A DNA stretch of 64,000 nucleotides, from contig JAJFHS010000028.1 of NCBI GenBank assembly GCA_021775475.1, forward strand, positions 15,729 to 79,728, given 5' to 3'. The stretch's first letter is position 1; the number at the start of each line of letters is the position of its first letter. The notes under the pieces are model-generated. The model was not told the origin of the DNA. It saw nothing but the letters and a program-made list of their open reading frames with translations, and did no database searches. The DNA comes from Hyphomicrobiales bacterium. Lineage in GTDB: Bacteria > Pseudomonadota > Alphaproteobacteria > Rhizobiales > JAJFHR01. Below, one piece after another: positions 43,052 through 58,687 of the stretch. A program made the translations under genes and the position numbers.

Positions 43052-44484
43052 CAGGAATTATGCTCCTCAAGTCTTGCGCGCATTTCGCGCAGCACATCGC
43101 GATCATCAATTACCCGGCGCGCCTTGAAATCGGTTCTTTCAATCGAATTAGGTGCGACGATCTCGACCACAGCGCGCAGGCCGAGAATTTTGTGCAGATG
43201 GGTGGCAGCAACACCCTGAAAAGCCGCTATGCTTTGTGGCCCGGATTGCCAGACACTTGTATCGGCTTCCAGCGTGACGGCGATTTCATCCATACTGCCT
43301 TCGCGGGTGATCAAAATACGGTGCTCACCACCATAGGAGGGCAGTTGGTTGAGGGCGGCATCAATTTCGCTTGGATAGACGTTTTCGCCGCGGATGGTGA
43401 ACATGTCATCAATGCGGCCGATGATGCCCAACGGTAGACGTGGGTAGGTGCGGCCACAGGGGTTGGGCCCGTCCTGCCACAAGGTGAGATCGCCTGATTC
43501 CATTCGGATCATCGGTTGTGAGGTGCGCTCAAGATGGGTGTAAACCGGCGTGCCGCGCGATCCATACGGCACACGCACATGAGTTTTGGGATCGCACACT
43601 TCGGTATAGACAATATCCTGCCAGCACAGCATACCTGAGGTTTCAAACGATCCGCCCACATGCATCCACGGGGTCATTTCTGCCATTGATCCGCTGTCGA
43701 AAACTTTGGCACCATAAAGCTCCTGTATTTTGTCGCGCACGCTGGGAATGGAGGCTCCGGGTTCGCCAGAAAAGAACATATAGCGCAAGCCGAAATCACG
43801 CGGGTTAAGGCCATTGTCAATGGCTGTTTGGGCCAGATGCAGGGCATAGGTGGGGGTGCCGTAAAAACCAGCCGGTTTGAGAGTGTTGAGCCACTGGGCG
43901 CAACGTGCCGACATGCCGGTGGCACCGGCACCGAACGGAAAAGCCTTGGCACCAAGACGCTCGGCCCCGGCCAGCGCCCCCCAACTGCCCATATACAGAC
44001 TGAAAATGGCAGCGACACAGATAATGTCGCCGGGCCGCATGCCCATCGCCCACATAATACGGGCATGGGCATTGGCGATAGATCGCCAGTCATCGCGACC
44101 GATGGCGAAAGCCGTTGGCGTGCCGGTGGTGCCGCTGGTGCCGTGAATATGATAGATTTCATCTTGAGGGATACACAGGTAATCACCAAAGGGGGTGTGA
44201 TTTTCCTGTGATGCGCGTATTTCAGCTTTTCTGATAACCGGAACGCGGGCTTCAAAATCCTCCAGTGATTTCAACTGCGAGGGATGAAACCCGGCCTCGT
44301 CCCATCTGGTGCGGTAGAAGCCCGCGTTTTCATAAGCGTAAGCGCAAATCTCCTGTAGCCGCTTTAAAATATGCCCCTCGCGTTCGCCTGCGGGCATTGT
44401 TTCGCGCGCCGTAAACCAGTAGCGGCTGTCAGGCGGCGGCATATAGCTGTCATCGTACTTTGGCGGGAACGACCATTGTTCCAT
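43051..44484 (-). CDS. phenylacetate-CoA ligase (PaaK)-family acyl-CoA ligase, candidate 2-hydroxyisobutyrate-CoA ligase (Hcl-like)
   Basis: 477 aa. HGTSGTTGTPT AMP-binding loop and PaaK-like length and architecture. It sits between the two mutase subunit genes. Confidence 0.65.
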   Translation of the reverse strand: MEQWSFPPKYDDSYMPPPDSRYWFTARETMPAGEREGHILKRLQEICAYAYENAGFYRTRWDEAGFHPSQLKSLEDFEARVPVIRKAEIRASQENHTPFGDYLCIPQDEIYHIHGTSGTTGTPTAFAIGRDDWRSIANAHARIMWAMGMRPGDIICVAAIFSLYMGSWGALAGAERLGAKAFPFGAGATGMSARCAQWLNTLKPAGFYGTPTYALHLAQTAIDNGLNPRDFGLRYMFFSGEPGASIPSVRDKIQELYGAKVFDSGSMAEMTPWMHVGGSFETSGMLCWQDIVYTEVCDPKTHVRVPYGSRGTPVYTHLERTSQPMIRMESGDLTLWQDGPNPCGRTYPRLPLGIIGRIDDMFTIRGENVYPSEIDAALNQLPSYGGEHRILITREGSMDEIAVTLEADTSVWQSGPQSIAAFQGVAATHLHKILGLRAVVEIVAPNSIERTDFKARRVIDDRDVLREMRARLEEHNS

Positions 44485-44495
44485 AATCTTTATCC

Positions 44496-44906
44496 TTACC
44501 TGGGGCCGCGTTCGGCAACCAGCTGTTGCAGCGAGGCGATGATCTCCTTAGGCGGAGTATCTTGCAGCATCACCAAAGCCACACCCATTTTTTTGATGGC
44601 AACAACATCTTCATCGGGCATGACACCGCCAGCAACAACGATCAGGTCATTGACATTTTTTTCTTTCAACAGCGCAAATATTTTTGGAAAAACCGTTAAC
44701 TGTACACCAGACAAAAGACTAACGCCGAGGATGTCGACATCCTCCTGAACAGCGGCGATGACCACTTCTTCCGGGGTGCGGTGAAGACCGGAATAGACCA
44801 CATCCATGCCGGCATCGCGCAAAGTTCGGGCTACGACCTTGATGCCACGGTCATGGCCATCAAGGCCAACTTTTGCCAGCAAAACTCTGATTGCCGTTGA
44901 CGCCAT
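44496..44906 (-). CDS. hcmB: acyl-CoA mutase small subunit (cobalamin-binding domain), HcmB-like
   Basis: DGHDRG (D-x-H-x2-G) B12-binding motif and a Rossmann-like fold. ATG at 44906 (136 aa) has an AGGGGGA RBS; the track ORF extends to TTG 44936. Confidence 0.8.
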   Translation of the reverse strand: MASTAIRVLLAKVGLDGHDRGIKVVARTLRDAGMDVVYSGLHRTPEEVVIAAVQEDVDILGVSLLSGVQLTVFPKIFALLKEKNVNDLIVVAGGVMPDEDVVAIKKMGVALVMLQDTPPKEIIASLQQLVAERGPR

Positions 44907-44927
44907 AACCCATCCCCCTGTCATTTC

Positions 44928-44976
44928 GCATACCAAATTTCGTATACAGAATGCTGTTTTGACGCTATAGTGTCAA
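44928..44976. promoter_or_regulatory. two palindromes in the hcmB / gntR divergent region (candidate GntR operators)
   Basis: GCATACCAAATTTCGTATAC (44928-44947, 16/20 self-complementary, GT..AC type) and TTGACGCTATAGTGTCAA (44959-44976, 16/18 self-complementary). Confidence 0.4.
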
Positions 44977-45015
44977 GCAGACATATGGTTACAACCGTCA
45001 GGGGAAAAGTTTTCA

Positions 45016-45666
45016 ATGGAAACACTGACACCGGCAAAATCGCTGGTACAAATGACCTATGAAGCAATCCTGGACGAAATTTGCACTGGGTCTTTGACGC
45101 CGGGCACGCGGTTATCGCAAGACCACCTGGCAGCCCAACTCAATGTTTCGCGCCAACCGGTGAACAGTGCAATTACCATGCTGAAAGCACAAAACTTTGT
45201 TGAAGATACCGGTCGGCGTGGCGTCGTTGTGGCTGCGGTTGACAGGAAACTGTTTGATGCAATTTACCAGTTTCGCGCGGCCATAGATCCGCTGGCCGTC
45301 GAACTGTCTATTAAACGTATGGCTGAAAAAGACATTGCAGAGGCACGTGAAATCATTGCCCGCGGCAAGGCTTGCGTTGAGGCTGCTCAAAGCCAGGCGG
45401 TTTTGCAGGCGGACATAGATTTTCATTCCCTGATTTATCAACTCAGTGGCAATGCCATCATTATTGATACGATGCATTTGAACTGGCGGCATCTGCAAAG
45501 GTCAATGAGAAAAGTCTTGCAACACCCCGGCATGACGGCCCAAGTGTGGAGTGAACACGAACAGATTTTTGATGCGATGGTGGCAGGCAAAACCGCGCAG
45601 GCAACCGCACTCATGCGCGCCCATGTTCGCGATGCCCCAAACAGGATTTCCAACCCAAAAGGGTAG
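45016..45666 (+). CDS. GntR family transcriptional regulator (FadR/FCD subfamily)
   Basis: N-terminal wHTH (LSQDHLAAQLNVSRQPVNSAITMLKAQNFV) and an all-helical FCD-like C-terminal domain. Confidence 0.85.
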   Translation: METLTPAKSLVQMTYEAILDEICTGSLTPGTRLSQDHLAAQLNVSRQPVNSAITMLKAQNFVEDTGRRGVVVAAVDRKLFDAIYQFRAAIDPLAVELSIKRMAEKDIAEAREIIARGKACVEAAQSQAVLQADIDFHSLIYQLSGNAIIIDTMHLNWRHLQRSMRKVLQHPGMTAQVWSEHEQIFDAMVAGKTAQATALMRAHVRDAPNRISNPKG

Positions 45667-46171: not shown

Positions 46172-46819
46172 TTATTTGTCTTTGGCAACGCCAAAATCGA
46201 CGAAGTTCGGGCCACCATAGAAAGGTTTGCCCAGGACATCGCCCAAAAGCAGCCAGCCTGACGCACCATTGGCGCAGGTCAACTTCATCCACTCGTCGAC
46301 AAGCCGTACCTTTGTTGAGGCCTTGGTGTCTTTTTCCAGTGAAGCTTCCATCAAATCCTGATCGGCTGTATAGGTCGTGCCCTTGAAGGTTATCTTGAAC
46401 ATGCCCTCAGCATAATAGGTCAGATAGGTCCATTCATCGCCCACACCAAACGTGATCTTCTCGTCACTGTCGGTTTGTTCGTTGCGCAGCGTCAATGTGG
46501 CCGGTTTCTTGATCACAAAAATCTCTATGGGAATATAGCTGAGAAATTCCAGCTTTGAGGATGTAACACGTTCGCTGTTCCAGGGATGGTAGGTGGCACC
46601 TTTTTTCATCGTACAGTTGATGGTCATGGACGCTTGCGGATCGGGCGTAGTTCGGATCAGTGTCATTACGTTTTGTTCCAGCGTAAACCCGTGGGGGTAT
46701 TCGCCAGCCCAGAAGTCGGTCTTGTACCATGTTGCATCATACGCCAATGCGGTGACGGTCAATAACGGGTAGATTGACAGCAATCCCAAGCTGCAAATAG
46801 CGAGTTTTCCAGATTTCAT
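46172..46819 (-). CDS. hypothetical secreted protein
   Basis: 215 aa. Signal peptide MKSGKLAICSLGLLSIYPLLTVTALA. No recognisable family. Confidence 0.6.
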   Translation of the reverse strand: MKSGKLAICSLGLLSIYPLLTVTALAYDATWYKTDFWAGEYPHGFTLEQNVMTLIRTTPDPQASMTINCTMKKGATYHPWNSERVTSSKLEFLSYIPIEIFVIKKPATLTLRNEQTDSDEKITFGVGDEWTYLTYYAEGMFKITFKGTTYTADQDLMEASLEKDTKASTKVRLVDEWMKLTCANGASGWLLLGDVLGKPFYGGPNFVDFGVAKDK

Positions 46820-46974: not shown

Positions 46975-46988
46975 TTGACCTTGATCAA
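46975..46988. promoter_or_regulatory. FNR/FixK-type box TTGACCTTGATCAA upstream of the Crp/Fnr regulator gene
   Basis: Matches TTGAT-N4-ATCAA at 9/10 positions. The centre is 73 nt upstream of the ATG at 47055 (class II-compatible geometry). Confidence 0.65.
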
Positions 46989-47054: not shown

Positions 47055-47768
47055 ATGCAAAATTTCACCACCGCGCGGCATGGGTGTGAGGCTGCGGGCT
47101 CTTTTACCTGTATGGCGTCTGCAGATGATAATGGCGATCCCCTTGCACGGCTACCTTATCAGTTGACCGATATAGAAAGCGCTTTGAAACATGTCCGGCG
47201 TGCACCTTATCCAATTATCATTATTTCCAGCGGTGCGGCTGGCTTGCAACATTTTCTCAAAGATGGCCGACGAACCATTTCTACGATATTCCTGACCGGT
47301 GAAGTCCTGGATTTTAGTCAGATACGAGGAAGCGGGGGCTCGTTATGTTGCCTCCTTCCCGGCCAGGTACAAATGTTCAATGCGGTAGATCTGGAAAAAC
47401 TGCGACAGGAAAACCCACAAGCCTGGTCGAGCCTGATGGTTGATAAATTCAGGTGTTGTAGTCAAATCGCCAATCATTCCGTCGACCTTGCCCGCAAGTC
47501 TGCGGTTGAAAAGCTCGCTTCATTTATTTTTGAATGCCGCAACCGTCAGGCTGCCGAGCGTGGCAAACTCATAAACCTGATTTTAAACCGAATTGATATT
47601 GCAGATTATATGGGGTTGAGACCGGAAACACTTTCACGTGCTTTCACAAAACTGAAACAGCTTAAAATGATAGCCTGCGAGTGTGGAGATTGTATTCATA
47701 TTCTCAATGAGCCGGCCTTGCGACAAATTGCAAATGGTGCGGCCGACGAATTTGCCTGCGCGGTATGA
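47055..47768 (+). CDS. Crp/Fnr family transcriptional regulator (FixK-like; no canonical FNR Cys cluster)
   Basis: C-terminal HTH IADYMGLRPETLSRAFTKLK carries the E--SR recognition motif of FNR/FixK proteins that read TTGA-N6-TCAA. AGGAGG RBS. Confidence 0.82.
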   Translation: MQNFTTARHGCEAAGSFTCMASADDNGDPLARLPYQLTDIESALKHVRRAPYPIIIISSGAAGLQHFLKDGRRTISTIFLTGEVLDFSQIRGSGGSLCCLLPGQVQMFNAVDLEKLRQENPQAWSSLMVDKFRCCSQIANHSVDLARKSAVEKLASFIFECRNRQAAERGKLINLILNRIDIADYMGLRPETLSRAFTKLKQLKMIACECGDCIHILNEPALRQIANGAADEFACAV

Positions 47769-47772: not shown

Positions 47773-49170
47773 TTATGCTCTGGCAGAAATTCCCGCTCTG
47801 GCATTCGCGGGCGCTACCTGTGCGACATCGGGCAGGTAGCAGTTAATTTTGCTCGCTGTTGCCCGTGCTTGTTCTATGCAACTTCCGACAGACACACCGC
47901 CGAGATAATTTCCAGTGACATATAATCCGGGCTGACGCAGGTGCAAAGCCTCTATGGTTGAAACTTTAACGCTGTGCCCGATCTCATATTGCGGGATGCT
48001 GCGCGCCCATTGACGGCAGCGGGAAAAAATCGGCTCGCCACTGATTTCCAACAGATCTGATAGTTCGCGGTGTACCAGATGGCTGAGGTCATTGCTGTTC
48101 AGGCAGGCTGCGTCATGGTTGCCGCTGCCGCCCACATAAGCAGAAATCGAGACAAATCCATCGGGAGCCCTATTGGCAAACATGGTCGAAGGGAATTGCG
48201 CACCGTTGATAATTCCTCCTGACCCTGCCACACTCAAAAACCCCAGACTATCAAGGCGGTGGCTAACCTGCTGGCGGGCATAGGCCAGAAAAATGACGCT
48301 AAGAGGGGGGGCATCAATCGCGGCTGCGGCTGTTGCAGCTGGCTCATCCAATGGCTCAAGCAGGCTGGCGGCAACGTGTGGCTGAACGGCAAAGACAATT
48401 GTTCTGGCTATCAGGTCACCTGATCTGTGAGTCTCTAACCTGTAGCCTTGCGGGTGTTTTGAAACGGATTTGACTGCGGTGCCGGTTTTAATGCAACCGG
48501 CCATCGCGTTAGCCAAAGTCTTCGGCAATGTTGCGATACCATCGCGAAACGAAAACAGTCTTTTACCGGGTTCACCACTGTGTCCGGCGTTAAACACACC
48601 TCGCGTGACAGAACCGAATTGCTGCTCCATTTTCATTAGTTTAGGAAAGGCTGATTGCAAAGATAGCTTGTGAGCGTCCCCCGCAAAAATTCCAGCCACC
48701 AGCGGTGCCATGATTTTTTCGGCAAACTCGATGCCAAAGCGACGGCATATAAAGGCGTGAATGCTTTCATCTTCGTTATTTGTTTTGCGCGGGCGTAGTA
48801 TCTCGGTCATGAGACGAAGCCGCCCACGAACAGACAGATAGGGCGACATCAGGAAACCCGTGCGCTTAATTCCGATGCCGTGCAAGGTACCGCCGTCACG
48901 CAGATAGCGTTTGCGCACACCGAGGCCCAAATCAAGTAGCTGGTTTTCAATATCGAGATTTTTAGTCAATTCCAGCGCTTGCGGCACCAGGGTATTGAGG
49001 GTGGTGGGACCATGTTCCATCAAGAAACCATTGATGCGCTGGGATATGGCATTGCCGCCAACGGTTTGCTGGCGTTCGAGGACAATAACCCGGCGGCCAC
49101 TTCGCTGCAGATCATACGCTGTGGTCAGGCCGGAAATGCCCCCACCTATTATAGCAACATCGTAGGTCAT
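47773..49170 (-). CDS. HemY-type FAD-dependent (copro/proto)porphyrinogen oxidase-like protein
   Basis: 465 aa. DVAIIGGGISGLTTAY...LERQQTVGGN...EHGPTTL dinucleotide-fold N-terminus, and overall length as in HemY/PgoX/CgoX. ATGA overlap with the radical SAM gene. Confidence 0.68.
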   Translation of the reverse strand: MTYDVAIIGGGISGLTTAYDLQRSGRRVIVLERQQTVGGNAISQRINGFLMEHGPTTLNTLVPQALELTKNLDIENQLLDLGLGVRKRYLRDGGTLHGIGIKRTGFLMSPYLSVRGRLRLMTEILRPRKTNNEDESIHAFICRRFGIEFAEKIMAPLVAGIFAGDAHKLSLQSAFPKLMKMEQQFGSVTRGVFNAGHSGEPGKRLFSFRDGIATLPKTLANAMAGCIKTGTAVKSVSKHPQGYRLETHRSGDLIARTIVFAVQPHVAASLLEPLDEPAATAAAAIDAPPLSVIFLAYARQQVSHRLDSLGFLSVAGSGGIINGAQFPSTMFANRAPDGFVSISAYVGGSGNHDAACLNSNDLSHLVHRELSDLLEISGEPIFSRCRQWARSIPQYEIGHSVKVSTIEALHLRQPGLYVTGNYLGGVSVGSCIEQARATASKINCYLPDVAQVAPANARAGISARA

Positions 49171-50453
49171 GACACCTCAGGCCTTTTGATGCCCGGTGGC
49201 ATGCCATTTTTGAACCGCTCTTTGGCCAGACGCGAAAGGTCATCTGCTGTGACCGTTGATCCGCCCTTTGAGCGCACATCTGCCTCAACGCGATTTTTGA
49301 CCATACGGCGAACGAAACCGGGTATGCGGGCAACGCGTTGTTGGGCATCGTCTGTCCAGTTGAGGTTAGTCTCACCGGTTTTCAAAACTTCGATGATTGC
49401 CCCGTTTTGCGGCTGGTATGAACATAGAAAGTCTTCACCCATGAGATCGTTTGAGCGCGCCAGCGGCCGGGCGCGACAACCGCCACACAGTTTTTGAAAT
49501 TCACAAACCCCGCAACGCCCTTCCAGTTGTGGCTGGCGCAGGGCGGTAAAAATCTCACCATCCTGCCAGATGTCGGAAAAACTGTTGTGGCGCAAAGACC
49601 CGCCGGAGGTTTCGATGAACGGACAAGGGGTTACCTCACCTTCGGGTGTGACGCGGGCATATCGTGTGCCGGCAATACAGCCACCGGCTTCATAACCATG
49701 AGCCATGGTGATCGGCCATTCCGGGTCGAGATCAAGCGCCAGTCGTTTGAAATGCGGCGCACATTTAGCGCGCACCATCAATTGCTTTTCATCGTGGGCA
49801 GCCTCGACAACGCGCTTGAGCACCTTGTCGTAATTTTCAATCGAAATATCGGTGTATTTCTCACCACGCCCGGTGCACACCAGAAAAAACACATTGAGCA
49901 CCAAAGCCTGTGCCTGCCGGGCAAAGCTGATCATGTCGTCAATTTCATCTGCGGTATGATCGGTAACCGAAAAATGTATCTGGAAGGCTAGACCTTCTTT
50001 GCGGCAGGCATCTATGGCGGCCATGGTTTTCAACCAGGCACCTCTGCGGCCGCGAAAATCATCATGCTTTTGCGGATCAAGGGAATCGATACTCAGACCA
50101 ATACCGGCAACCCCGGATTTTTTGAGACGCTTTACCCGTTCAGCTGTCAAAGTGATACCGTTGGATCCAATGACGACCATCAGCCCGAGTTTGCTGGCGT
50201 GGGCTGCCAATTCTTCGATGTCTGGGCGCAGCAACGGTTCACCACCGGTCAATACGATCATACACTCCGGCCCAACGCTGGCGATGTCACTGATGGCCCT
50301 TTTTACCTCGTCGGTAGACAATTCATCGGTGCTGCCGTTTTTCAGAATTTCAGCATCAAGATAACAATGCGTGCACGACAGGTTGCACCGTTTTGTCAAA
50401 TTGAAGGCGACAAGAAAAGGTGCCTCTACCGGATTAGAATCTGGTCTAGTCAT
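49167..50453 (-). CDS. radical SAM/SPASM protein of the NirJ/AhbC/AhbD tetrapyrrole-modifying type with a C-terminal BchB-C-terminal-like (PCP_red) module
   Basis: CNLSCTHCY cluster motif, NVFFLVCTGRG and AKCAPHFKR (family hallmarks), SPASM cysteines (GGCIAG...CPF, CGVCEFQKLCGGCRARP), and the tail WTDDAQQRVARIPGFVRRMVKNRVE. The ATG at 50453 overlaps the upstream stop by 8 nt; the track ORF to 50714 is rejected. Confidence 0.78.
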   Translation of the reverse strand: MTRPDSNPVEAPFLVAFNLTKRCNLSCTHCYLDAEILKNGSTDELSTDEVKRAISDIASVGPECMIVLTGGEPLLRPDIEELAAHASKLGLMVVIGSNGITLTAERVKRLKKSGVAGIGLSIDSLDPQKHDDFRGRRGAWLKTMAAIDACRKEGLAFQIHFSVTDHTADEIDDMISFARQAQALVLNVFFLVCTGRGEKYTDISIENYDKVLKRVVEAAHDEKQLMVRAKCAPHFKRLALDLDPEWPITMAHGYEAGGCIAGTRYARVTPEGEVTPCPFIETSGGSLRHNSFSDIWQDGEIFTALRQPQLEGRCGVCEFQKLCGGCRARPLARSNDLMGEDFLCSYQPQNGAIIEVLKTGETNLNWTDDAQQRVARIPGFVRRMVKNRVEADVRSKGGSTVTADDLSRLAKERFKNGMPPGIKRPEVS

Positions 50454-52107
50454 GATCGCGCTCGGTTGCATCAGGCTTCGGGCACATGGCTTTTCGCGCT
50501 TTGGCAAAACCCCCTTCGGCAACCTCACCATCAACGCGAACTTCACCGTTTGCGCGCACATAATCTTCAATGGTTTGCCTGGCTTTGGACCGAAAAATTT
50601 CCGGCACTCTTTGCAGTCGTGCCAGATAGGCTGCTGCCCACTCGAGATCATTGTGGTAAGTCTCGGCAACAAAAGGTTGCACGTGTTGTGGTAATACTTC
50701 GGTGGCAGCATCACGGCGGGCGGATTTTTCTGCTCTCAGGCGAATATTTTCCTGCAACACCTTGTCATCCAGCGTTGCCAGCAGGGCCGTTGCTGCGGCA
50801 TTCCAGGCGAGCGGGTCAAAACCTGAACTGACGGGTGTTTCATCACCGTCAGAATTTCCGCCCGGCATCATTTTTTTCATCACATCTTCAACAAAGCGGC
50901 TGGTGATGAATGTATGTCCCTCTGCATGGGCCTGGCGAATAACCGAGGTGCGGGCGATGCCACGGACAAAATCAGGCGCGCGCGACATCATTGCATCAGC
51001 CTCGTCAGACCACATTATGGTTTCTTCAGCGATAACATCAAGCGAAGGAAAATGGGTCTTTTGGCCAATCCAGATGTGGCACGGTGCCATCCGTAACAGA
51101 TTTTCCGTGGTGCCGCCGATGTCGAGTTCTTCATCACCATGAACGCCAACCTTTCCTACCATCAACAAGCTTGCGTCAACTTTTTCGAGATATTTGCGGA
51201 TGGCCTGAAACGGTTTTCCTGAAACCAGCTTGCAGATGATGTTGACACCTTCTTCTTCGGCCACAGTTTTGGCAATGGCAAGATGGGATTGGTAGATCTT
51301 GGCAATACCATCATCAATCAGTTCTTCGTGCAGCTGTTCCTGCTCTTTAAACCGAAACACTTTTCCCGCCTCATCAGATAAAACACCGGCAATCTTGTTA
51401 AAGGCAACGTAGTGATAATAGGGATCATAAGCTGCAACTGCGTGCACGTCGGCACCGATCTGGCGGGCGATCATCAGTGCGGATTTGAGAACTCCGAAAG
51501 ACTGGGGTGAGCCGTCAATTCCGACAACGATTGGTCCATCACCAATGCTGGTTTTGCGGTCTTTGATTACCAGCACATCAATTGGCGCGCGCCGTACAAC
51601 ACGTTCGCAAACGCTGCCAATAATACTGCCTGCAACCGCACCAAGCCCGCGGGAGCCCAGGGCGAGCACGTCAAATTCTCCGGTTTTAGCCGCATCAATG
51701 ATGCAGGTGTAGTTTTTACCTTCCGGGCTCAACCTTTTGAATTTTACTTGGGATTTTTCGCATTTGGCTTGAGCCGTATCATGGTAACTGTCGGAAATAA
51801 TGCCAAGTCCCTTGCCAATCAGGTCTTCATGTACGTCGCGCTGGTGTTCCATTTCGGTTTCATAACGATAACGTTCCGGCAATCCGCCTTCCATCTGCTT
51901 GAAACGCCGGTCATGCATTTTGGCAGCATAGGCATGAATGCCTATTATATTGCCATTGATTGGCTTAACCAATTTGATGGCTTCGACAACTGCCTGGTTG
52001 GCGAGGTCTGATTGATCAAGGGCGACAAGAATATTGTTCAGGCGAACCGGTGCTGTACCGACTTGCTCATCGGCAATTTTTTCAGTGTGCGCCCTTGCTG
52101 TAGACAT
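50446..52107 (-). CDS. tandem universal stress protein (2x Usp) fused to three PCP_red-like modules
   Basis: Usp domains at about aa 24-182 (GSRGLGAVAGSIIGSV) and 192-348. From aa 366 come three ~45-aa repeats starting WSDEADAMMSRAPDFVRG, WNAAATALLATLDDKVLQ and WAAAYLARLQRVPEIFRS. Confidence 0.75.
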   Translation of the reverse strand: MSTARAHTEKIADEQVGTAPVRLNNILVALDQSDLANQAVVEAIKLVKPINGNIIGIHAYAAKMHDRRFKQMEGGLPERYRYETEMEHQRDVHEDLIGKGLGIISDSYHDTAQAKCEKSQVKFKRLSPEGKNYTCIIDAAKTGEFDVLALGSRGLGAVAGSIIGSVCERVVRRAPIDVLVIKDRKTSIGDGPIVVGIDGSPQSFGVLKSALMIARQIGADVHAVAAYDPYYHYVAFNKIAGVLSDEAGKVFRFKEQEQLHEELIDDGIAKIYQSHLAIAKTVAEEEGVNIICKLVSGKPFQAIRKYLEKVDASLLMVGKVGVHGDEELDIGGTTENLLRMAPCHIWIGQKTHFPSLDVIAEETIMWSDEADAMMSRAPDFVRGIARTSVIRQAHAEGHTFITSRFVEDVMKKMMPGGNSDGDETPVSSGFDPLAWNAAATALLATLDDKVLQENIRLRAEKSARRDAATEVLPQHVQPFVAETYHNDLEWAAAYLARLQRVPEIFRSKARQTIEDYVRANGEVRVDGEVAEGGFAKARKAMCPKPDATERDHD

Positions 52108-52123
52108 TTTCTGCTCCCGCTAA

Positions 52124-52234
52124 CTATCCGTACAGCAGCCAATAGCCAAAAATCAAAGCTATAACCGCAACATTTACAGCCGCACCAGCCAGTACAAAAC
52201 CGTCAAAGGCATTGAGCTTTTTTTTAGGTGTCAT
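52124..52234 (-). CDS. 36-aa single-TM peptide (not in the ORF track)
   Basis: ATG at 52234 with a GAGG 8 nt upstream. MTPKKKLNAFDGFVLAGAAVNVAVIALIFGYWLLYG* has a basic N-terminus followed by one hydrophobic helix. It fills the only gap in the operon. Confidence 0.45.
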   Translation of the reverse strand: MTPKKKLNAFDGFVLAGAAVNVAVIALIFGYWLLYG

Positions 52235-52261
52235 GGCCTCGACCTCAGGTTTGCCGGATGA

Positions 52262-53002
52262 TCAGAATGACAGGTCGATTTTGGTGTCGGCGCCAGAGGC
52301 AACCTTTACCTTGCCACTCTTGATTTCACCTAAAAACCCCTGCCACAGCCTGATTTTGTATTCGCCAGGCGGTATGTCACCGATGGTGAACTCACCGTTT
52401 TCATTAACAACGGAAAAATAAGGGCTTTGGGCAACGAACATATAGGCATGCATAAAATCATGCGCGTCGCACTCGATTTTCATGCCGGCACCTTTACGCA
52501 TTTTGATTTTCTTGGTTACCTTGTCCCCGGCGTTGGGCTGCGACACGTTTATTGCTGTGCGTCTTGCTTTGCCGATAAGTTCGTAGGTGTGGATGTTATG
52601 CAGGGTTTTATCTGAATTAACAGCGGTGAGTTTTCCGCCATTCGCCATCACGGAAAATCCGGGAGCAAACGCGCATTTTTCCTGATTGATGGTTACATTC
52701 ATCAGCTCTTTTGGAAATGCTTTACCCTGCTTGACTTTGTACAGAAAGACTATCGCATTTTTTACAGTGCCGTTTTTGTTAATTTCAACAAGGGGCACAA
52801 TGCGTTTGCCTTCACCACAGATTTGTGGATCCTTGGAAATAGTGAATGTTTTTGTTTTCTCGACAACACCGCCTGCCATAACTTTTCCCGAAATACTGCC
52901 ACCATCGGAGACATCGATTTCCTTGTACTTTGCGGCGTGAGCCAATCCGGTAAAACTTACCAATGCAACTGTGCAGAGTATTCCTTTAAACAATCTATTC
53001 AT
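52262..53002 (-). CDS. periplasmic cupredoxin-like protein with amicyanin-type ligand spacing plus a C-terminal Ig-like (carboxypeptidase-regulatory-like) domain
   Basis: Signal peptide MNRLFKGILCTVALVSFTGLAHA. Candidate type-1 Cu ligands are H in TLHNIHTYE and C-x2-H-x2-M in IECDAHDFMHAYM. C-terminal GEFTIGDIPPGEYKIRLW. Confidence 0.6.
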   Translation of the reverse strand: MNRLFKGILCTVALVSFTGLAHAAKYKEIDVSDGGSISGKVMAGGVVEKTKTFTISKDPQICGEGKRIVPLVEINKNGTVKNAIVFLYKVKQGKAFPKELMNVTINQEKCAFAPGFSVMANGGKLTAVNSDKTLHNIHTYELIGKARRTAINVSQPNAGDKVTKKIKMRKGAGMKIECDAHDFMHAYMFVAQSPYFSVVNENGEFTIGDIPPGEYKIRLWQGFLGEIKSGKVKVASGADTKIDLSF

Positions 53003-53038
53003 CGACGTTTCCTCTTCGTTAAATGTTGAAAATAGGGC

Positions 53039-55207
53039 TCAGGCGGCGGCTTGGATATCACCATTTTCTGAATAGCTGAAGAGATCTCCAAGCGCTTCGA
53101 TGGCGACCAGCCATGCCCGCTTGTTGTCATCATCATCAAGAATATTGAGATATTTTTCCGCCGCTTCATTGGCGTTCCAGTCCTTGAGCATGGCGACAAT
53201 ATCGCGACGGTGCATACCATCATGCGCCAGGCTTAATTCAACCAGAACATCCATTTGAGAGCGCCGGTTGGCAAGGACTTGAGCCGCAGCAATTCGAACC
53301 CCGGAATAATTATCATCAAGTGCACGCAACAGGCTTTCCACATGACCTTTCTTGCGACCAAGGGCTGTGATGGCTTCACGGCGAGCATGCACATCGCCAT
53401 CACTGCATAACTCGACCAGGACATCTTCAACCTCTTTGCCCTTGATGTAACCGAGGCAACGGGCGCCAAGCATGCGAACAACACGATCTTTATGCTGAGT
53501 TTCTTTTAGGATTGCCGGGTACAGGCGTTTTTTCAATTTCCCCCGCCGATTGGCAATGAGAGCCAGACTTTCCAGACAGGATTGTTTGAGCTCAACATCA
53601 TCATCTCCTAAGGCCTGGCCCAGAGCTCTAGTCACTCCCGGAAAATCAAAGTCACCCAGAAGACAGGCAGTAAACCGGCGAACATCACGATGGGGAGCTA
53701 CTTTGGCATCCAGCGATACCTTGCCTTTTTTCATCGCGCGCAATTTCGATATTTCGAGGAATTTTTTATCGTCTTCGGAAAGTTTTATTTCCTCCGGTTC
53801 CGGTTCATTTTTGAGGGCCGGTTCGGTGCCAACTCCATCGCGTAAAATTTTATCCAATGTGGATGTGGCAGGAGATTGTTCTTCGGGCACAACATCGTCA
53901 ACGTCTCTGGCTGTTTCTTGTTCTGTGTCGTCTACGTCCTCAACCGCCTCGACAAGTTCGCCTCGAAGCGCCGCGAGGAGACTGTCCCCGGCCGTGTTGG
54001 GCCATTTACCTGAGGTAGCAATTTCTGCCAGCGCCGACATGGTCGAGATGCGGATCTGTCTGTTGCTGTTGCCAATGGTATCCAGCAGATAGGGCAGACC
54101 GGCATCATCGAGCAAGGTTAGTGCTTCAATCAAGCCAAGCCGAAAAATCAGTGGTTGTTCAGGGTTTTGCAGTGCTCGCCCCAAGCTTTTTGCTGATTCT
54201 TTTCCAATCATGCCTGCCCAGGCGACAGCTGCGGCACCGGCAACTTCCGGTATGCCGATTATGGCCTTTTTGACAATCTCGGAAAAACCTTCTTTTTCAA
54301 ACGCTCCGGGTTCAACGGCAATTGACCTGAAGATTGTTTCCCGGACTTTCGCAGACTTGTCAGACAATCTCTCCATCGCCAAACCAGGTTCGTTTGAGCT
54401 TATTGTTTTGGCAATCAGAATGCGCACATCAACATCATTGTCACTGAAGTATGCGGCAAGACGGGCGTCTTCAGGGTCATTATCAATTATTTTTTCCAGA
54501 GCAACATAGCGAACTTCACCTGCGTTATCGGCCAGACACTTTTCCAAAAGTCCATCCATTTCGACAGATTGCCCTGGCTGTAAAACCGAACAGACCCGGC
54601 GGCGCGTGCGTGCGTCACCTTCGGTGTACAATGTGGTCAGTGCGGCAACACCTTCGGTTTTAAGTTGAGCCAGAGCCGGGATGGCAACCTGGGTCAGGTC
54701 TTGACCCTCGTCATTTTTCAATTCGTTCATAATGACAGTGACGGATTTAGCTGTACCAACTTTACCCAGCGCCTTGATTGCCGCCAGTTGAATGTCGAGC
54801 CAGTCATCCCAGCCTGAGGCATAACAATCGTCATCTCCCCAGTTTATTTCTTCTTCCCGGCCCGCAACTATTGTATGCAGCCAGGGGACAACCGGGCGAT
54901 GGTTGACGCTGGCAAGCAATTCAATTGCTGACAGTTTGACTTCTGGGCAGGGGTCACCGAGAAGATTTTCCATGATGGCACCGGCAGCTTGCGTTTCGTC
55001 AAGTTCAAGCAAGGCGGCGGCGGCATCGGTCCTTACATCTTCATCTTCATCCAGCAGTGCCTGTTGCAGCACGGGTCCAGCTCCGGGATGAGCAATCTTG
55101 CCCACCGCCTTTGCTGCGGCACAACGATGAATATCCAGCCCCTCCAAAACGAGAGTACTCAGTTGGGTAAATGCTCTTTCTTTTGCAGATTTTGCTCTTG
55201 TTACCAT
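53039..55207 (-). CDS. HEAT-repeat (PBS-lyase HEAT-like) protein, cytoplasmic
   Basis: About 722 aa of repeated D.d..VR..AA.AL units with a central acidic/Lys-rich linker and no signal peptide. ATG at 55207; the track start 55213 is TTG. Confidence 0.75.
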   Translation of the reverse strand: MVTRAKSAKERAFTQLSTLVLEGLDIHRCAAAKAVGKIAHPGAGPVLQQALLDEDEDVRTDAAAALLELDETQAAGAIMENLLGDPCPEVKLSAIELLASVNHRPVVPWLHTIVAGREEEINWGDDDCYASGWDDWLDIQLAAIKALGKVGTAKSVTVIMNELKNDEGQDLTQVAIPALAQLKTEGVAALTTLYTEGDARTRRRVCSVLQPGQSVEMDGLLEKCLADNAGEVRYVALEKIIDNDPEDARLAAYFSDNDVDVRILIAKTISSNEPGLAMERLSDKSAKVRETIFRSIAVEPGAFEKEGFSEIVKKAIIGIPEVAGAAAVAWAGMIGKESAKSLGRALQNPEQPLIFRLGLIEALTLLDDAGLPYLLDTIGNSNRQIRISTMSALAEIATSGKWPNTAGDSLLAALRGELVEAVEDVDDTEQETARDVDDVVPEEQSPATSTLDKILRDGVGTEPALKNEPEPEEIKLSEDDKKFLEISKLRAMKKGKVSLDAKVAPHRDVRRFTACLLGDFDFPGVTRALGQALGDDDVELKQSCLESLALIANRRGKLKKRLYPAILKETQHKDRVVRMLGARCLGYIKGKEVEDVLVELCSDGDVHARREAITALGRKKGHVESLLRALDDNYSGVRIAAAQVLANRRSQMDVLVELSLAHDGMHRRDIVAMLKDWNANEAAEKYLNILDDDDNKRAWLVAIEALGDLFSYSENGDIQAAA

Positions 55208-55270
55208 GATCAATGTCCCAGAACGTCCTGTTTTGTGGGTTCAATTGAGCACAATCGGCGGCGGCCTCCC

Positions 55271-55284
55271 TTGACATATGTCAA
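55271..55284. promoter_or_regulatory. perfect palindromic FNR/FixK-type box TTGACATATGTCAA upstream of the HEAT-repeat operon
   Basis: TTGA-N6-TCAA, fully self-complementary. The centre is 70 nt upstream of the ATG at 55207. Confidence 0.65.
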
Positions 55285-55341: not shown

Positions 55342-55378
55342 AAAACCGGAAGAGGCCTATTCTCTTCCGGTTTTTTTT
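55342..55378 (-). terminator. rho-independent terminator after the Mo-oxidoreductase gene
   Basis: 9-bp stem CCGGAAGAG / CTCTTCCGG (55346-55354 / 55362-55370) extended by A/T pairs, with T-runs on both strands. It begins 32 nt past the stop at 55410. Confidence 0.6.
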
Positions 55379-55409: not shown

Positions 55410-58085
55410 TCAGACCGGGATATCGCGCGGTGCAAAAGACATCGACCGGAACGTGTTTTTGTAAGGGGATATACCAATTTTTTTGATCCTGGCAACGCCC
55501 ATTTTGTAGTTGTAGTTACCACTCATCCAGTCAACAACACGCCCTTCCAATGCGTTTGCCGGCTGCGATGTGTGCAGGAAGTCCATATAAAGAACCCCTT
55601 TCTTCACCGCCCGCGTAACCATGGCTACAGCGGTAACCGCTGCTTCGCTGAGTTCGACGTTGCCGTTCTTCATCTGGCCAGAGAACTTGTAGTCATCACC
55701 TTCCACCCCAAGGATCGTCTCCTTGAGTGAGGGCACGCGATCGGAATAGATCATCACCATATCGCCGCTTTCAATACCACGGGCCTTGGCGTCTTCCGGG
55801 TTGATTTCAACCCAGTTTTCAGGCCAGCGCTGCACGATATAGGGGCGACGGCGATCATCAAAGCCTGACTGCCAACGCTCATTTGAGCGACCCGATGTAC
55901 ACCACAACTCGTCATCCTTGGGACGCATCCATTCCCAATAATCTGAAAACCACGACCATTGCCCCTTTTCAAGATTGCAACGTCCGGTCTGGGAATTGAA
56001 GTGTGTGGTCTTCTTGTTGACCATGTTGGCTCCAGCTGGGCCGGTTGGCGACAATTTCATTTGCGTATCGTGCAGTCGCTTTGTGCCGACCAGAGTACCA
56101 TCATCCAGCATCGACACCGGACCCTGAATACCATTGGTGCCAAATTCCCTGAGTTTTTGATGCAGGGTTTTGCCTTCACGTTTGGCGGCAACTTTGACCA
56201 TATTGTAGTCTTTACGGCTGCCACGTGAAAAGCGTGCGGATTCTTCAGCAACTTCGTTGGAGTTTTTCCAGTCAAAGCCTTTATAGCCCATGCGAGTAGC
56301 CAGTTGGGCGATGATCCACCAATCCGGCTTTGCGTCCCCCGGCGGATCGTAGAACTTCTGGTACAGGCGCAGACGGCGCTCGCCGTTGGCACGCATAAAG
56401 TCTTCTTCCCCCCATGTAGCTGCCGGGAAGATGATATCGGCAAACTGGTTGCCAATCGGATCGACCAGATAAATGTCCTGGTTAATGATCACCATGCCAC
56501 CTGAATCAGCCCGTTTTTTCAAGGTTTCAATGATTTTCTCTTTATTGAGAGAACGCACCTGATGCGGATTGCCATTGGTGAGTTCATGGAACTTGGCAGC
56601 CAATTCGAATGACCCGCACATGGATTGAATCCAGGTAGTTCCGATGACATGGGCCATGCGGGTGTGACCGGCCATGGTCCAGGTATCGGTGTCAAGTGCG
56701 CGGCGACGACGACCGGGCAGTTTCATCGGTGATTTGTTGCGTGGATATTTGCCACCGCCAACACCGCCGCGTTGATGGCCGCCAGCACGACCGATCATCT
56801 GACCAGGTCTGCCGCCGGCACCGACTATGATGCCCAGTGCCGAGATGGCAACGGTATTACCAGTATTGTTTGACCAGTAAAATCCCTTCTCGATCATGAC
56901 CGATGTTTTCGGGCGTTTGCCTTTGACAGGTTTTGCCATCATCTCAGCGGCAAGCTGAATTTTTTCTGCATCAATGCCGGACATTTTTGAGGCATTTTCT
57001 AACGTGTAATCATCTTGCGACAACAGCCATTTCTTCCAGTCCTCAAAGCCCTTGGTCTGGAACTGGCCCCAGGTGGTACGCCATTGCCACGGCGTGTTGC
57101 GGGTGCCCTGGCCAAATCCTGATGAGGAGCCCCACTTGTCGTTGACCCAGTTTTTAATCCACTCTTTGTCCTGCCAGCCGTTTTCTACAATGATGCGGGC
57201 AATGGCATTGACCACAAGAAGGTCTGTGCCAGGAGTTACATCAAGCCACAGGCCACCATTTTGCTCGGCATAAGCGACACCGGCAGTGCGACGTGGCACC
57301 ATCATAATGGTTTTCTGGCCGTTTTGAATACCCTTCATAATCCACTGTGTGAACAGGATTGTTTTGGTTTCATAAGGGTCGGTTCCGCAGATAAGCAGTG
57401 TTTCGGCGTCGCGCCAATCTTCATAAGAAGGCGCAAAGTTATCAAATCCAGCGTTGCGAAAACCCGGCGTTGAAGAGACGTTCGACGGGGTGTCATGGAA
57501 AGTGAAGTTCGCCGTGTTAACGGAACCGAGTGCGAATTTTGTGATCGCGTAGGTGTTTTCAATATATTGATAGGAGAATGTTTTGACACCGTAAGCCAAA
57601 GGCCCATGCTTTTCGATCACATATTTTGCAACAGCAGCAGCGACATCAAGTGCCAGATCCCAGGTAACCGGTTGAAGAATGCCGTGAATACGCATCAACG
57701 GCGTGGTCAGGCGGTCGCGCGTGGGTTTTTGGGGATTGTAGCATTTTTGTGCGATACAGCCACCGCGAAGCGATGAATCGCCGTCGGTATTAACGGCTTT
57801 GGTTTCCTTGTCAGGCAGGATGACCACATGATGGGGTTCGTCCTCGTGAAGCACGATGTTGTGCTGGTTGGGGGCTACCCAGGGGCCGAGCACTTCCACG
57901 GGGAAGTCGACGCCGAAGGCATTTTCTCCCGCCTTGGCACCGCCGCGCTTGCCGCCTTTTACCGGCCAGCGATAAACTTTGTAGCCGCAGGCAACGATGC
58001 AATAATCGCACGCCGTAGATATAACATCCGCATCCTTGGGAGGCAGGGGTACATCTGTATCTGGAATATAATATGGTGTTGACAT
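55410..58085 (-). CDS. molybdopterin (bis-MGD) oxidoreductase catalytic subunit of the arsenite oxidase AioA / iodate reductase IdrA family
   Basis: 891 aa. N-terminal C-x2-C-x3-C (CDYCIVACGYKVY), which I read as AioA-like 3Fe-4S-type by analogy with AioA (no alignment run; the next Cys lies about 80 residues downstream). GRAGGHQRG motif. C-terminal tail similar to AioA. No signal peptide (Tat hitch-hiker). Confidence 0.8.
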   Translation of the reverse strand: MSTPYYIPDTDVPLPPKDADVISTACDYCIVACGYKVYRWPVKGGKRGGAKAGENAFGVDFPVEVLGPWVAPNQHNIVLHEDEPHHVVILPDKETKAVNTDGDSSLRGGCIAQKCYNPQKPTRDRLTTPLMRIHGILQPVTWDLALDVAAAVAKYVIEKHGPLAYGVKTFSYQYIENTYAITKFALGSVNTANFTFHDTPSNVSSTPGFRNAGFDNFAPSYEDWRDAETLLICGTDPYETKTILFTQWIMKGIQNGQKTIMMVPRRTAGVAYAEQNGGLWLDVTPGTDLLVVNAIARIIVENGWQDKEWIKNWVNDKWGSSSGFGQGTRNTPWQWRTTWGQFQTKGFEDWKKWLLSQDDYTLENASKMSGIDAEKIQLAAEMMAKPVKGKRPKTSVMIEKGFYWSNNTGNTVAISALGIIVGAGGRPGQMIGRAGGHQRGGVGGGKYPRNKSPMKLPGRRRRALDTDTWTMAGHTRMAHVIGTTWIQSMCGSFELAAKFHELTNGNPHQVRSLNKEKIIETLKKRADSGGMVIINQDIYLVDPIGNQFADIIFPAATWGEEDFMRANGERRLRLYQKFYDPPGDAKPDWWIIAQLATRMGYKGFDWKNSNEVAEESARFSRGSRKDYNMVKVAAKREGKTLHQKLREFGTNGIQGPVSMLDDGTLVGTKRLHDTQMKLSPTGPAGANMVNKKTTHFNSQTGRCNLEKGQWSWFSDYWEWMRPKDDELWCTSGRSNERWQSGFDDRRRPYIVQRWPENWVEINPEDAKARGIESGDMVMIYSDRVPSLKETILGVEGDDYKFSGQMKNGNVELSEAAVTAVAMVTRAVKKGVLYMDFLHTSQPANALEGRVVDWMSGNYNYKMGVARIKKIGISPYKNTFRSMSFAPRDIPV

Positions 58086-58102
58086 AACTCACTTCTCCCG
58101 AA

Positions 58103-58687
58103 TTAGCTGTGCAGATTGTTTTCGCGACCAAAAATCAGCCCAAAAATGCCAGTGGCATAGACACTGTCACCTTCGATTTCGAGCAAAATTTGCGGCAGGC
58201 TCTGATAAGCCTGACCTGAGATCAAAATGCCGTGGCGGGTGAGGTCATAAGTTGAAAGATGTAGCGGACAGGCACCAAGTGATTTGGTTTCAGCTTTGTA
58301 ACTGCCAGACAATGAGTTGCCCTGGTGGGTGCAGGCGTAATTGTAAGCGACAATATCCTGGTCCTTACCCAAACCACCGCCAGCTTTAACGCCGAGCTTG
58401 ACCACCATGTTATCAGAATATTCGCCCTCATCAGGGTAGTTGAAGTCAAGCGGTTCATCCTGCTTCAGTTCGGACAGTTTGCAGATAAATTTGCGCGGAT
58501 AATTGGTGATCTGCGCCGGCACAGCCTTAGCATCAGCAGTCCCCGGGTTCAGGGTCACCATTACAGTGACAGTTGTCGCCCCGGTGCCAATAAGAAAGTT
58601 GCGACGTGAAACCAGACATTTGTGGCCGACTTCTTTCGCCAGCTGCTTTCTCGACCGGGTGTTTTTATAGACAGTTGTTTTGGCCAT
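58103..58687 (-). CDS. Rieske [2Fe-2S] small subunit with Tat signal (AioB / IdrB family)
   Basis: Twin-arginine leader SRRNFLIGTGA. Rieske ligand boxes CTH and CPLH. Small-before-large gene order as in aioBA. Confidence 0.82.
   Translation of the reverse strand: MAKTTVYKNTRSRKQLAKEVGHKCLVSRRNFLIGTGATTVTVMVTLNPGTADAKAVPAQITNYPRKFICKLSELKQDEPLDFNYPDEGEYSDNMVVKLGVKAGGGLGKDQDIVAYNYACTHQGNSLSGSYKAETKSLGACPLHLSTYDLTRHGILISGQAYQSLPQILLEIEGDSVYATGIFGLIFGRENNLHS

Follow-up and report, generated by a model that had tools for sequence, protein, structure and literature searches.

A conserved operon of haem-pathway-type enzymes and PCP_red proteins beside bd-like oxidase genes: a possible accessory to a low-oxygen respiratory complex

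Introduction

Which respiratory enzyme is served by a group of tightly packed genes that combines relatives of haem-pathway enzymes with a copper-type protein and a HEAT-repeat protein? The question is raised by a 64,000-nucleotide stretch of contig JAJFHS010000028.1 from a Hyphomicrobiales bacterium (assembly GCA_021775475.1), referred to here in its full length as the window, in which such an operon occupies positions 47773-55284 with all of its genes on the minus strand. The operon lies directly downstream of genes resembling the iodate reductase set idrP1P2BA, and the first-pass annotation of this DNA proposed that it encodes a module for the maturation or delivery of haem or a modified tetrapyrrole, tied to that neighbouring oxidoreductase. 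The operon is real, conserved across many genomes and apparently undescribed; no account of this gene set was found in the literature on PF08369 (PCP_red), on bd-like oxidases with radical SAM or EB_dh proteins, or on the surroundings of idr genes, in agreement with the same annotation. Its partner appears to be a different one. We put at about even probability the explanation that these genes form an accessory operon of a bd-like respiratory complex, made up of a CydA-like protein with cytochromes c and cytochrome c/EB_dh proteins, and not of the idr-like enzyme.

Anatomy of the operon

Six genes on the minus strand encode, in order, a HEAT-repeat protein, a cupredoxin-like protein, a 36-residue peptide, a USP/PCP_red protein, a radical SAM protein and a HemY protein. 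The gaps from the HEAT gene through to the USP gene are 36, 27 and 16 nucleotides, the USP/PCP_red and radical SAM genes overlap by 8 nucleotides (ATGACTAG) and the radical SAM and HemY genes share an ATGA overlap. The upstream idr-like operon is closed by an intrinsic-terminator-like hairpin (55342-55374, minus strand) with a G+C-rich stem of 13-14 base pairs, including 6 G-C pairs, followed by a T-run. This hairpin is directly 3' of the gene for an 891-residue AioA/IdrA-type Mo-enzyme, the end of which is at 55410. The palindrome TTGACATATGTCAA (55271-55284), a perfect match to the FNR/FixK-type consensus TTGAY-N4-RTCAA and the likely activator site of the operon promoter, precedes the first gene. 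The hairpin, the perfect box and the spacing of 36 nucleotides or less, or overlap, were thus all found as first described. The count of seven genes was not; the window holds six, and the list that accompanied the count also names six. A seven-gene version does exist in Rhodobacteraceae-type relatives, in which an FGE-sulfatase gene stands between the peptide and USP genes. This additional FGE-sulfatase-family gene is present in many such loci (for example L011 9103-9954 and L186 9134-9970) and the window is without it. FGE-like proteins, which are copper enzymes, are found alongside copper nitrite reductase under the name NirV.

Conservation and genomic context

The USP/PCP_red gene has 455 relatives in the GTDB species-representative genomes, and three scans of these genomes yielded about 110 different loci (labelled L001-L186). 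The loci belong to Alpha-, Gamma- and Zetaproteobacteria of marine origin and, at a greater distance, to Rhodothermales, Chloroflexota, Dormibacterota, Actinomycetes and others. Where enough downstream sequence is available, the USP gene is followed by the radical SAM gene in 79 of 96 loci and by HemY in 64 of 86, and the conserved core consists of these three genes: USP/PCP_red, AhbD-like radical SAM/PCP_red and HemY. Recurrence in dozens of independent genomes means that the arrangement exceeds chance, and the initial description of a real, separately promoted and syntenic unit holds. A 3.08-Mb metagenomic contig (L186) with an independent gene call has the same layout as the window, with the FGE-sulfatase homologue added between the peptide and USP genes. 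In that contig a gene for MoeA, a molybdopterin molybdenumtransferase (14588-15847), directly follows HemY and may serve the idr-like enzyme.

The neighbourhood in which the core is found is most often that of a bd-like oxidase. Genes for a bd-like protein (a Cyt_bd_oxida_I homologue) and/or for cytochrome c/EB_dh proteins are present in 43 of 54 fully flanked loci, idrA in 13, and neither the bd-like cluster nor idrA in three. In most loci USP, radical SAM and HemY stand directly after a cluster of bd-like, cytochrome c and EB_dh genes that contains no idr-like gene, the typical order in Rhodospirillaceae being cytochrome c, cytochrome c/EB_dh, cytochrome c, bd-like, cytochrome c, cytochrome c, cytochrome c/EB_dh, USP, radical SAM and HemY. 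The whole six-gene operon is divergent from the bd-like cluster in Gammaproteobacteria, again with no idr-like genes, and bd-like, cytochrome c/EB_dh, radical SAM and USP genes occur together in Rhodothermales. A USP protein with five PCP_red modules is encoded near Rieske, cytochrome b and bd-like genes in Chloroflexota, Dormibacterota and Actinomycetes; in Chloroflexota the five-module gene is upstream of ABC transporter, Rieske, cytochrome b and bd-like genes, and radical SAM and HemY are absent. One such locus from Chloroflexia (L123, 9917-18679) encodes an 860-residue USP/PCP_red protein with five modules, an ABC ATPase, an ABC-2 permease, a 440-residue protein, a Rieske protein, cytochrome b and a 458-residue bd-like protein, and this pattern recurs in Dormibacterota and Actinomycetes loci.

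The relationship with the idr-like genes is of another kind. The HEAT and cupredoxin genes accompany idrA in 13 of 13 loci, and occur without it in five of the 54 that are fully flanked. The bd-like cluster is not visible in eight of the 13 idrA loci because the idr-like genes fill the upstream flank, and in others, as in the window, it lies just past them. The idrP1P2BA-like genes of the window (55410-61097, minus strand) encode two di-haem peroxidases, a Rieske subunit and the AioA/IdrA-type Mo subunit. Upstream of them is the 3' end of the conserved partner cluster (61169-64000, minus strand), recognised by Pfam, which comprises a gene for a 755-residue tri-haem cytochrome c/EB_dh (haem b) protein (61169-63436) and a cytochrome c gene that runs past the right edge of the window (63433-64000) and the product of which has 279 residues on the source contig. 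The next gene upstream, beyond the window (L081), encodes a 585-residue Cyt_bd_oxida_I homologue that lacks a CxxCH motif and has 11 or more hydrophobic segments. The idr-like genes together with the HEAT, cupredoxin and peptide genes therefore lie between the bd-like cluster and the core triad on this contig and, because the bd-like cluster sits just upstream of them, the idr-like genes look like an insertion. When the synteny check that had been proposed at the outset was carried out, the core genes proved to be syntenic with one another but the idr-like genes, which stand between the bd-like cluster and the core in some lineages only, did not generally share in this, and in most loci USP, radical SAM and HemY are present without the oxidoreductase that had been taken as their implied partner. 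Nor is the set a single module as first claimed; it splits into an optional block (HEAT, cupredoxin and peptide) and the block of USP, radical SAM and HemY. The possibility that the six genes are part of the idr island was rejected on the same count of 13 in 54.

The conserved core

The radical SAM gene (49167-50453, minus strand) encodes a 428-residue radical SAM/SPASM protein of the AhbD/NirJ2 clade with matches to Radical_SAM (E=2e-27), SPASM (E=2e-7) and PCP_red (50.0 bits against a cut-off of 32.5), the last formed by about 80 extra C-terminal residues. The motifs CNLSCTHC and CGVCEFQKLCGGC are present in the translation, which thus shows two features of AhbD and NirJ2, the radical SAM motif CX3CX2C and auxiliary-cluster cysteines in a SPASM domain. 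Among NCBIfam models the best scores are with the haem b synthases NirJ2 (308.5 bits) and AhbD (291.7 bits), more than 115 bits above any other family: NirJ (175), AhbC (167) and NirJ1 reach at most 175 bits and the peptide maturases, including PqqE (132), at most 132 bits. All of these are under the curated cut-offs. To judge from these models the protein is a member of the AhbD/NirJ2 clade and not an equivalog.

The last gene (47773-49170, minus strand) encodes a 465-residue HemY-family porphyrinogen oxidase that depends on flavin adenine dinucleotide (FAD), scores 284.2 bits against TIGR00562 (cut-off 97.85) and contains the FAD motif VAIIGGGISGL. Its closest solved relative is the Myxococcus xanthus (Mx) protein PgoX (2ivd). 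The pocket residues that separate PgoX from CgoX are Mx R95, F329 and L332 and the lack of Arg at the position of R364 in the Bs enzyme (PMC10740692). The HemY of the window has R88, L309, L312 and S343, a PgoX and not a CgoX pattern. Across 95 orthologues (the window and 94 others) Arg is found at Mx-R95 in 95 and Leu at Mx-L332 in 93, and the position of Bs-CgoX R364 is occupied by Ser, Ala, Thr or Cys and never by Arg. This signature led to the rejection of HemY as the coproporphyrinogen oxidase of a Gram-positive-type pathway. It is known that AhbD acts as the anaerobic last step beside HemY-type enzymes in some Gram-positives (PMC13564367); given the PgoX pattern, however, a Gram-positive-style route of CgoX, chelatase and AhbD is not the simplest reading here. 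Two consecutive steps, O2-independent decarboxylation of coproporphyrinogen followed by oxidation of protoporphyrinogen, would be equally possible from the sequences.

The first gene of the core (50446-52107, minus strand) encodes a 553-residue protein with a tandem Usp region (E=4e-35, in two stretches), three PCP_red modules of the BchB type and, at the C-terminus, a Cys-Pro tail that is conserved. PCP_red (PF08369) is matched at 60.4 bits against the same cut-off of 32.5. Of the three modules claimed in the first-pass annotation, the third is below the Pfam threshold in this protein; it does appear as a third helix repeat in the structure model (366-413, 434-482 and 489-541), and Pfam calls three in a relative. 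A Foldseek search with the model returned the tandem USP fold of Rv2623, TTHA0350 and UspE over residues ~20-350; the USP domains dominated this search and the PCP_red part was uninformative. The nucleotide-binding motif G-x2-G-x9-G-S is present in the first USP domain, with G151, G154, G164 and S165 invariant, so that two Usp domains, the fold and the motif G-x2-G-x9-G-(S/T) all agree with a tandem nucleotide-binding USP protein. For the tail the best PDB sequence matches are ChlB 457-501 and 2kru, and these are weak (ChlB E=0.08). The protein is not itself a BchB or ChlB, as alignment with the BchB models is confined to their last 50-70 residues and there is no match to Oxidored_nitro.

Both the USP and the radical SAM proteins carry a PCP_red module. 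We take PCP_red, from structures of DPOR, to be the tetrapyrrole-covering C-terminal domain of ChlB/BchB, and by analogy we infer a role in haem binding. Residue C542 of the USP tail is invariant in close homologues and is His in other subfamilies; the Cys-Pro of the C-terminal 'AMCP' is swapped for 'AMH...GGHK' in some subfamilies and for a terminal 'G-x-F-H' in others, the longer forms finishing with a conserved Phe-His. Such an interchange of Cys and His is the pattern that would be expected of a residue that ligates metal or haem. Few proteins have the triple PCP_red arrangement: among 1.84 billion representatives they make up 200 clusters at 50% identity, many of them of 550-900 residues with a match that begins around residue 340, as it does in the architecture of a USP fusion. 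With an AhbD/NirJ2-like radical SAM protein, a bona fide HemY and BchB-type PCP_red modules encoded side by side, the tetrapyrrole theme of the original proposal is a reasonable one. The domain calls on which it was built are reproduced by Pfam and NCBIfam, apart from that of the cupredoxin-like protein, which needed a structure model.

FNR/FixK-type boxes and regulation

The window contains four matches to TTGAY-N4-RTCAA against 0.43 expected, a number reached in none of 100 shuffles. One is the box 5' of the HEAT gene. A second (61084-61097) adjoins the beginning of the first of the idr-like peroxidase genes, a third (46975-46988) is upstream of a Crp-family gene that is convergent with the operon, and the fourth (62285-62298) falls inside the cytochrome c/EB_dh gene. 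A fifth box is found on the source contig beyond the window (L081 337-350), upstream of the gene for the 585-residue bd-like protein. The occurrence of one box type before the operon and before the idr-like, bd-like and crp-like genes makes the earlier claim of co-regulation with neighbouring respiratory genes plausible. Among homologous operons, 38 of 70 loci have a perfect box within 400 nucleotides, mostly 40-110 nucleotides, upstream of the first gene. The conserved box precedes HEAT where HEAT is present and USP where it is absent, and its central bases differ between loci. Because the position of the box upstream of the first gene is conserved across loci, the operon can be regarded as separately promoted. 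A TG-n-TCAATT element about 22 nucleotides downstream of TTGACATATGTCAA would fit a class II promoter, and the box type suggests that the operon is induced at low oxygen.

The Crp-family gene (47055-47768, plus strand) encodes a Crp/Fnr-family, FixK-like regulator with an HTH_Crp_2 domain, and the FNR-type box at 46975-46988 may reflect autoregulation. The best NCBIfam matches of this protein are FixK and FnrL, both under cut-off, and the gene is kept at the same position in the closest relatives (L001, L002, L004 and L008). As expected of an FNR/FixK regulon, a palindrome at a conserved promoter position is found together with a regulator gene of the Crp/Fnr family, and from its sequence and position this gene is probably the regulator of the operon. 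Downstream of the operon in a gammaproteobacterial locus (L069 15237-19882) are genes for a PAS/Cache sensor kinase, a sigma-54 response regulator and an SCO1/SenC copper chaperone, which suggests copper delivery and a different regulation in that lineage.

The optional block

The HEAT gene (53039-55213, minus strand) has an open reading frame that opens with TTG at 55213 and encodes 722 residues from the ATG at 55207. The protein has two HEAT blocks joined by an acidic linker, matches HEAT_2 (E=6e-39) and HEAT_PBS (E=3e-8) in Pfam and is predicted to be cytoplasmic, no strong hydrophobic segment having been found on a hydropathy scan. Its similarity to NblB and CpcE is only generic, and the PBS-lyase-type repeats give a weak hint of possible tetrapyrrole binding. 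The gene co-occurs with the cupredoxin gene across loci.

The cupredoxin-like gene (52262-53002, minus strand) encodes a secreted 246-residue protein of two domains, a type-1-copper-like cupredoxin and a C-terminal Ig-like domain (fn3_3/CarboxypepD_reg). Searches gave no cupredoxin match in Pfam or NCBIfam and no sequence match in the PDB, and because this call had no sequence-model support it was tested by structure. An AlphaFold2 model built from a 30-sequence alignment (pLDDT 84) has pseudoazurin, plastocyanin, amicyanin and AcoP as its top Foldseek matches, with target-normalised TM-scores of 0.5-0.72 to pseudoazurin and plastocyanin. Residues H135, H138, C178, H181, M184 and H185 are invariant in 30 homologues. 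The protein thus has the fold and the His/Cys/His/Met set of a type-1 copper cupredoxin and goes unrecognised by curated sequence models; all of its 607 homologues are unnamed. The initial cupredoxin-like call is supported by the fold and the invariant residues, and the part that had been suggested for this copper protein in cofactor maturation is less likely than that of a periplasmic electron carrier. It could carry electrons for the idr-like enzyme or for the bd-like complex. Azurin-type proteins are known partners of Aio-type enzymes.

The small gene between cupredoxin and USP (52124-52234, minus strand) encodes a 36-residue membrane peptide with a single helix (hydropathy maximum 2.28). 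From Alpha- to Gammaproteobacteria it keeps its place immediately behind the cupredoxin gene, and of 53 loci that have this gene 39 show the peptide motif, against none of the 88 that lack it. We read it as a membrane partner of the cupredoxin. A role for the peptide as an analogue of CydX was rejected, as the same distribution tracks cupredoxin and not the oxidase genes.

A proposed role and the evidence that bears on it

From the anatomy of the operon, the domain identities, the bd-like synteny, the recurring FNR-type boxes and the PgoX signature we infer each of the following biochemical steps. At low oxygen a Crp/Fnr-family activator, probably the one encoded next door, would bind the TTGAC-N4-GTCAA box and bring about expression of the six genes on one message. 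The last three genes, as the conserved core, would be concerned with haem handling. The AhbD-like radical SAM enzyme would carry out an O2-independent propionate-to-vinyl decarboxylation of a copro-type tetrapyrrole (coproporphyrinogen III or coprohaem), and the PgoX-type HemY would oxidise protoporphyrinogen IX. The USP/PCP_red protein may hold tetrapyrrole or haem by means of its BchB-like capping modules and Cys/His tail and hand it to the radical SAM enzyme, which has the same module, and then to the apo-oxidase, a transfer that the nucleotide-binding USP domains may gate. The first three genes would form the optional block and supply a type-1 copper carrier of the periplasm, the small membrane peptide as partner of this carrier, and a HEAT scaffold in the cytoplasm. 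A wider form of this explanation can be offered only tentatively, as we think it rather doubtful: that USP/PCP_red proteins are cross-phylum haem chaperones or assembly factors for bd-like (OR-N-type) oxidases, joined in marine Proteobacteria by a new AhbD-like enzyme that gives an O2-independent haem step or a non-canonical haem.

Several observations weigh against a haem-handling role in the service of the bd-like complex. The model of the USP protein is of moderate confidence (pLDDT 73), and outside DPOR a tetrapyrrole role for PCP_red is an analogy. At 291.7 and 308.5 bits against 500 bits (TIGR04545/TIGR04055) the radical SAM protein falls well short of an equivalog, so that its substrate may be a different one. 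A PgoX-type HemY and a coprohaem decarboxylase form no single linear known pathway, and no ferrochelatase was recognised among the cluster genes examined. HemY enzymes normally need O2, which is odd for a gene behind an FNR-type box. S. aureus CgoX, however, is reported to be required anaerobically too (PMC6620371). As the Chloroflexota-type loci keep USP/PCP_red without radical SAM or HemY, the role of the USP protein cannot depend on either of these. In a gammaproteobacterial locus (L079 205-13187) USP and radical SAM directly follow narGHJI and two narK genes; within view there is no HemY and no bd-like gene, and a Crp/cNMP-family regulator is nearby. Finally, all of the approximately 110 loci come from metagenome-assembled genomes or metagenomic contigs of uncultured organisms. 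No cultured isolate was found among them, even by the third scan, which was seeded with a Roseovarius-type sequence, and the cultured idr-carrying Roseovarius and Aliiroseovarius species (PMC11445184) are absent from the loci found.

Alternative explanations

The narGHJI locus is one of the points that speak for a more general role, in which the enzymes are anaerobic haem-biosynthesis isoenzymes that raise bulk haem b, and adjacency to the bd-like cluster reflects shared regulation and no dedicated partnership. The FNR-type boxes, the many haem proteins encoded by the cluster and the precedent of hemN beside cco/fix genes would all agree with this. Linkage to bd-like genes nevertheless holds across classes and phyla, including lineages without radical SAM and HemY, and the USP/PCP_red family is rare and was not found in cultured relatives, unlike a housekeeping isoenzyme. 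We consider this explanation unlikely.

A second possibility is that the operon provides a dedicated pathway for a non-canonical, modified haem of the bd-like active site, the AhbD-like enzyme and HemY acting on a non-standard intermediate. We know of no biosynthetic gene for the haem d of canonical bd oxidases, and the radical SAM subfamily is distinct, under all curated cut-offs and equipped with an extra PCP_red domain, and is tightly linked to an oxidase family of uncharacterised cofactor content. This is made improbable by the protoporphyrinogen-type pocket that HemY retains, by the plain haem b synthases that are the nearest models of the radical SAM protein and by the Chloroflexota-type bd-like clusters, which do without both enzymes. 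A little less probable again is a hypoxia stress or regulatory module in which the tandem USP protein is a regulator of dormancy or respiration like Rv2623 and the PCP_red modules are protein-protein adaptors that bind no tetrapyrrole. The fold matches to Rv2623, TTHA0350 and UspE, the G-x2-G-x9-G-S motif and the FNR-type control are as such a module would have them; translational coupling of the USP gene to two enzymes of tetrapyrrole families, the conservation of the Cys/His tail and the fact that the sole characterised context of PCP_red is a tetrapyrrole enzyme are not.

The original proposal, that cofactors are matured or delivered for the idr/aio-like molybdoenzyme next door and the haem proteins that partner it, now seems very unlikely. 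In its favour are adjacency, seen in the window and in the 13 idrA loci, the constant presence of HEAT and cupredoxin with idrA and the box type common to both operons. Most loci with the triad are without idr-like genes, so that synteny largely refutes it, and the catalytic subunits show molybdopterin and Fe-S-type domains only. The c-type haems of the peroxidases have their own maturation by the Ccm system. In addition, the idr island as published consists of idrABP1P2 and its surroundings are poorly conserved (PMC8692401), and no cultured idr carrier is among the relatives of the USP gene. That the SPASM enzyme modifies the 36-residue peptide in a system for ribosomally synthesised and post-translationally modified peptides, as SPASM enzymes often modify peptides and a small open reading frame is at hand, is scarcely credible for a plain membrane helix that tracks cupredoxin and not radical SAM (its motif being absent from all 88 loci without cupredoxin) and an enzyme that scores at most 132 bits with peptide-maturase models against about 300 with those of tetrapyrrole enzymes.

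Relation to known systems

If the operon is an accessory of the bd-like complex, as we favour, its components are new and its logic resembles that of hemN beside FNR-controlled cbb3 genes. In Rhodobacter hemN adjoins fnrL and ccoNOQP, and in Bradyrhizobium FixK2 controls hemN2; as in those cases, a putative O2-independent haem enzyme is found beside, and apparently co-regulated with, a low-oxygen oxidase through an FNR/FixK box. The differences are that the enzyme is AhbD-like and not HemN, that the oxidase is bd-like and not cbb3, and that USP/PCP_red, HemY and the copper block are added.

The individual proteins likewise combine familiar and unfamiliar features. With AhbD and NirJ2 the radical SAM protein shares the CX3CX2C core, the full set of SPASM cysteines and its best curated models (292-308 bits), and the pairing with a HemY-type enzyme has Gram-positive precedent (PMC13564367); it differs in falling under the 500-bit cut-offs, in its extra PCP_red domain, in its proteobacterial or Rhodothermales host and in its place beside a respiratory cluster. 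HemY resembles PgoX (2ivd) in passing TIGR00562, in the FAD motif and in the signature residues, and is unusual in standing behind an FNR-type box, in being coupled to a radical SAM gene and in being absent from some lineages that keep the rest. The PCP_red modules are, by Pfam and the best PDB sequence matches, the same small helical module as the C-terminus of BchB/ChlB and the stand-alone 63-residue protein 2kru. Unlike BchB/ChlB, these proteins have no nitrogenase-like catalytic domain, the modules are repeated three to five times in USP fusions and also fused to radical SAM, and most hosts belong to lineages that are not known to be phototrophic. Rv2623, TTHA0350 and UspE share the fold of residues ~20-350, the nucleotide-binding motif and low-oxygen-type control with the USP protein and lack its PCP_red extension of about 200 residues with the Cys/His tail, as well as its fixed position beside tetrapyrrole enzymes and bd-like genes.

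The partner itself resembles the bd-like OR-N and OR-C oxidases (10.1101/2021.01.16.426971) in being a CydA homologue without a quinol-type context that is encoded with cytochromes c or, in Chloroflexota, with Rieske and cytochrome b; the bd-like protein here is not placed in a named OR subfamily. The main text of that preprint (Murali et al.) makes no mention of radical SAM, USP or protoporphyrinogen genes. The ABC transporter between the USP and oxidase genes in some Chloroflexota loci may be compared with CydDC among the bd assembly factors, and the 36-residue peptide is unlike CydX in following cupredoxin. The upstream neighbours in the window share gene content and order with the four-gene idrABP1P2 island (PMC8692401); the six operon genes are outside the island as described and mostly occur without idr.

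Other features of the window

The AioA/IdrA-type subunit passes the NCBIfam cut-off for the arsenite-oxidase large subunit (413 against 359 bits). Taken with the flanking idrP1P2-like di-haem peroxidase genes, this score means that automatic annotation would probably name an iodate-reductase-like enzyme "arsenite oxidase". An unrelated minus-strand cluster (40414-45666) encodes a large subunit of the methylmalonyl-CoA-mutase family (570 residues), a MeaB GTPase, a PaaK-like AMP-forming ligase and a B12-binding subunit of 146 residues, and is adjoined by a divergent GntR/FCD regulator gene. Between this cluster and the Crp-family gene is a gene (46172-46819) for a 215-residue predicted secreted protein that has no Pfam match and is conserved only in the closest relative, L001.

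Implications

Oxidases of the bd-like type are common in nitrifiers, Chloroflexota and bacteria of oxygen-minimum zones, and a conserved neighbour with putative tetrapyrrole-capping modules, together with a translationally coupled pair of haem-pathway-type enzymes in marine Proteobacteria, offers a handle on their cofactors and assembly. The picture of the marine idr-like locus is also corrected, in that the idr-like genes lie inside a larger low-oxygen respiratory island, beside a putative high-affinity oxidase, a setting that agrees with models of iodate reduction as a source of reactive oxygen species or O2. Should the radical SAM enzyme act on coproporphyrinogen or coprohaem, an O2-independent route would be added to the proteobacterial haem pathway, and this route would run in organisms of oxygen-minimum zones that respire iodate and traces of oxygen.

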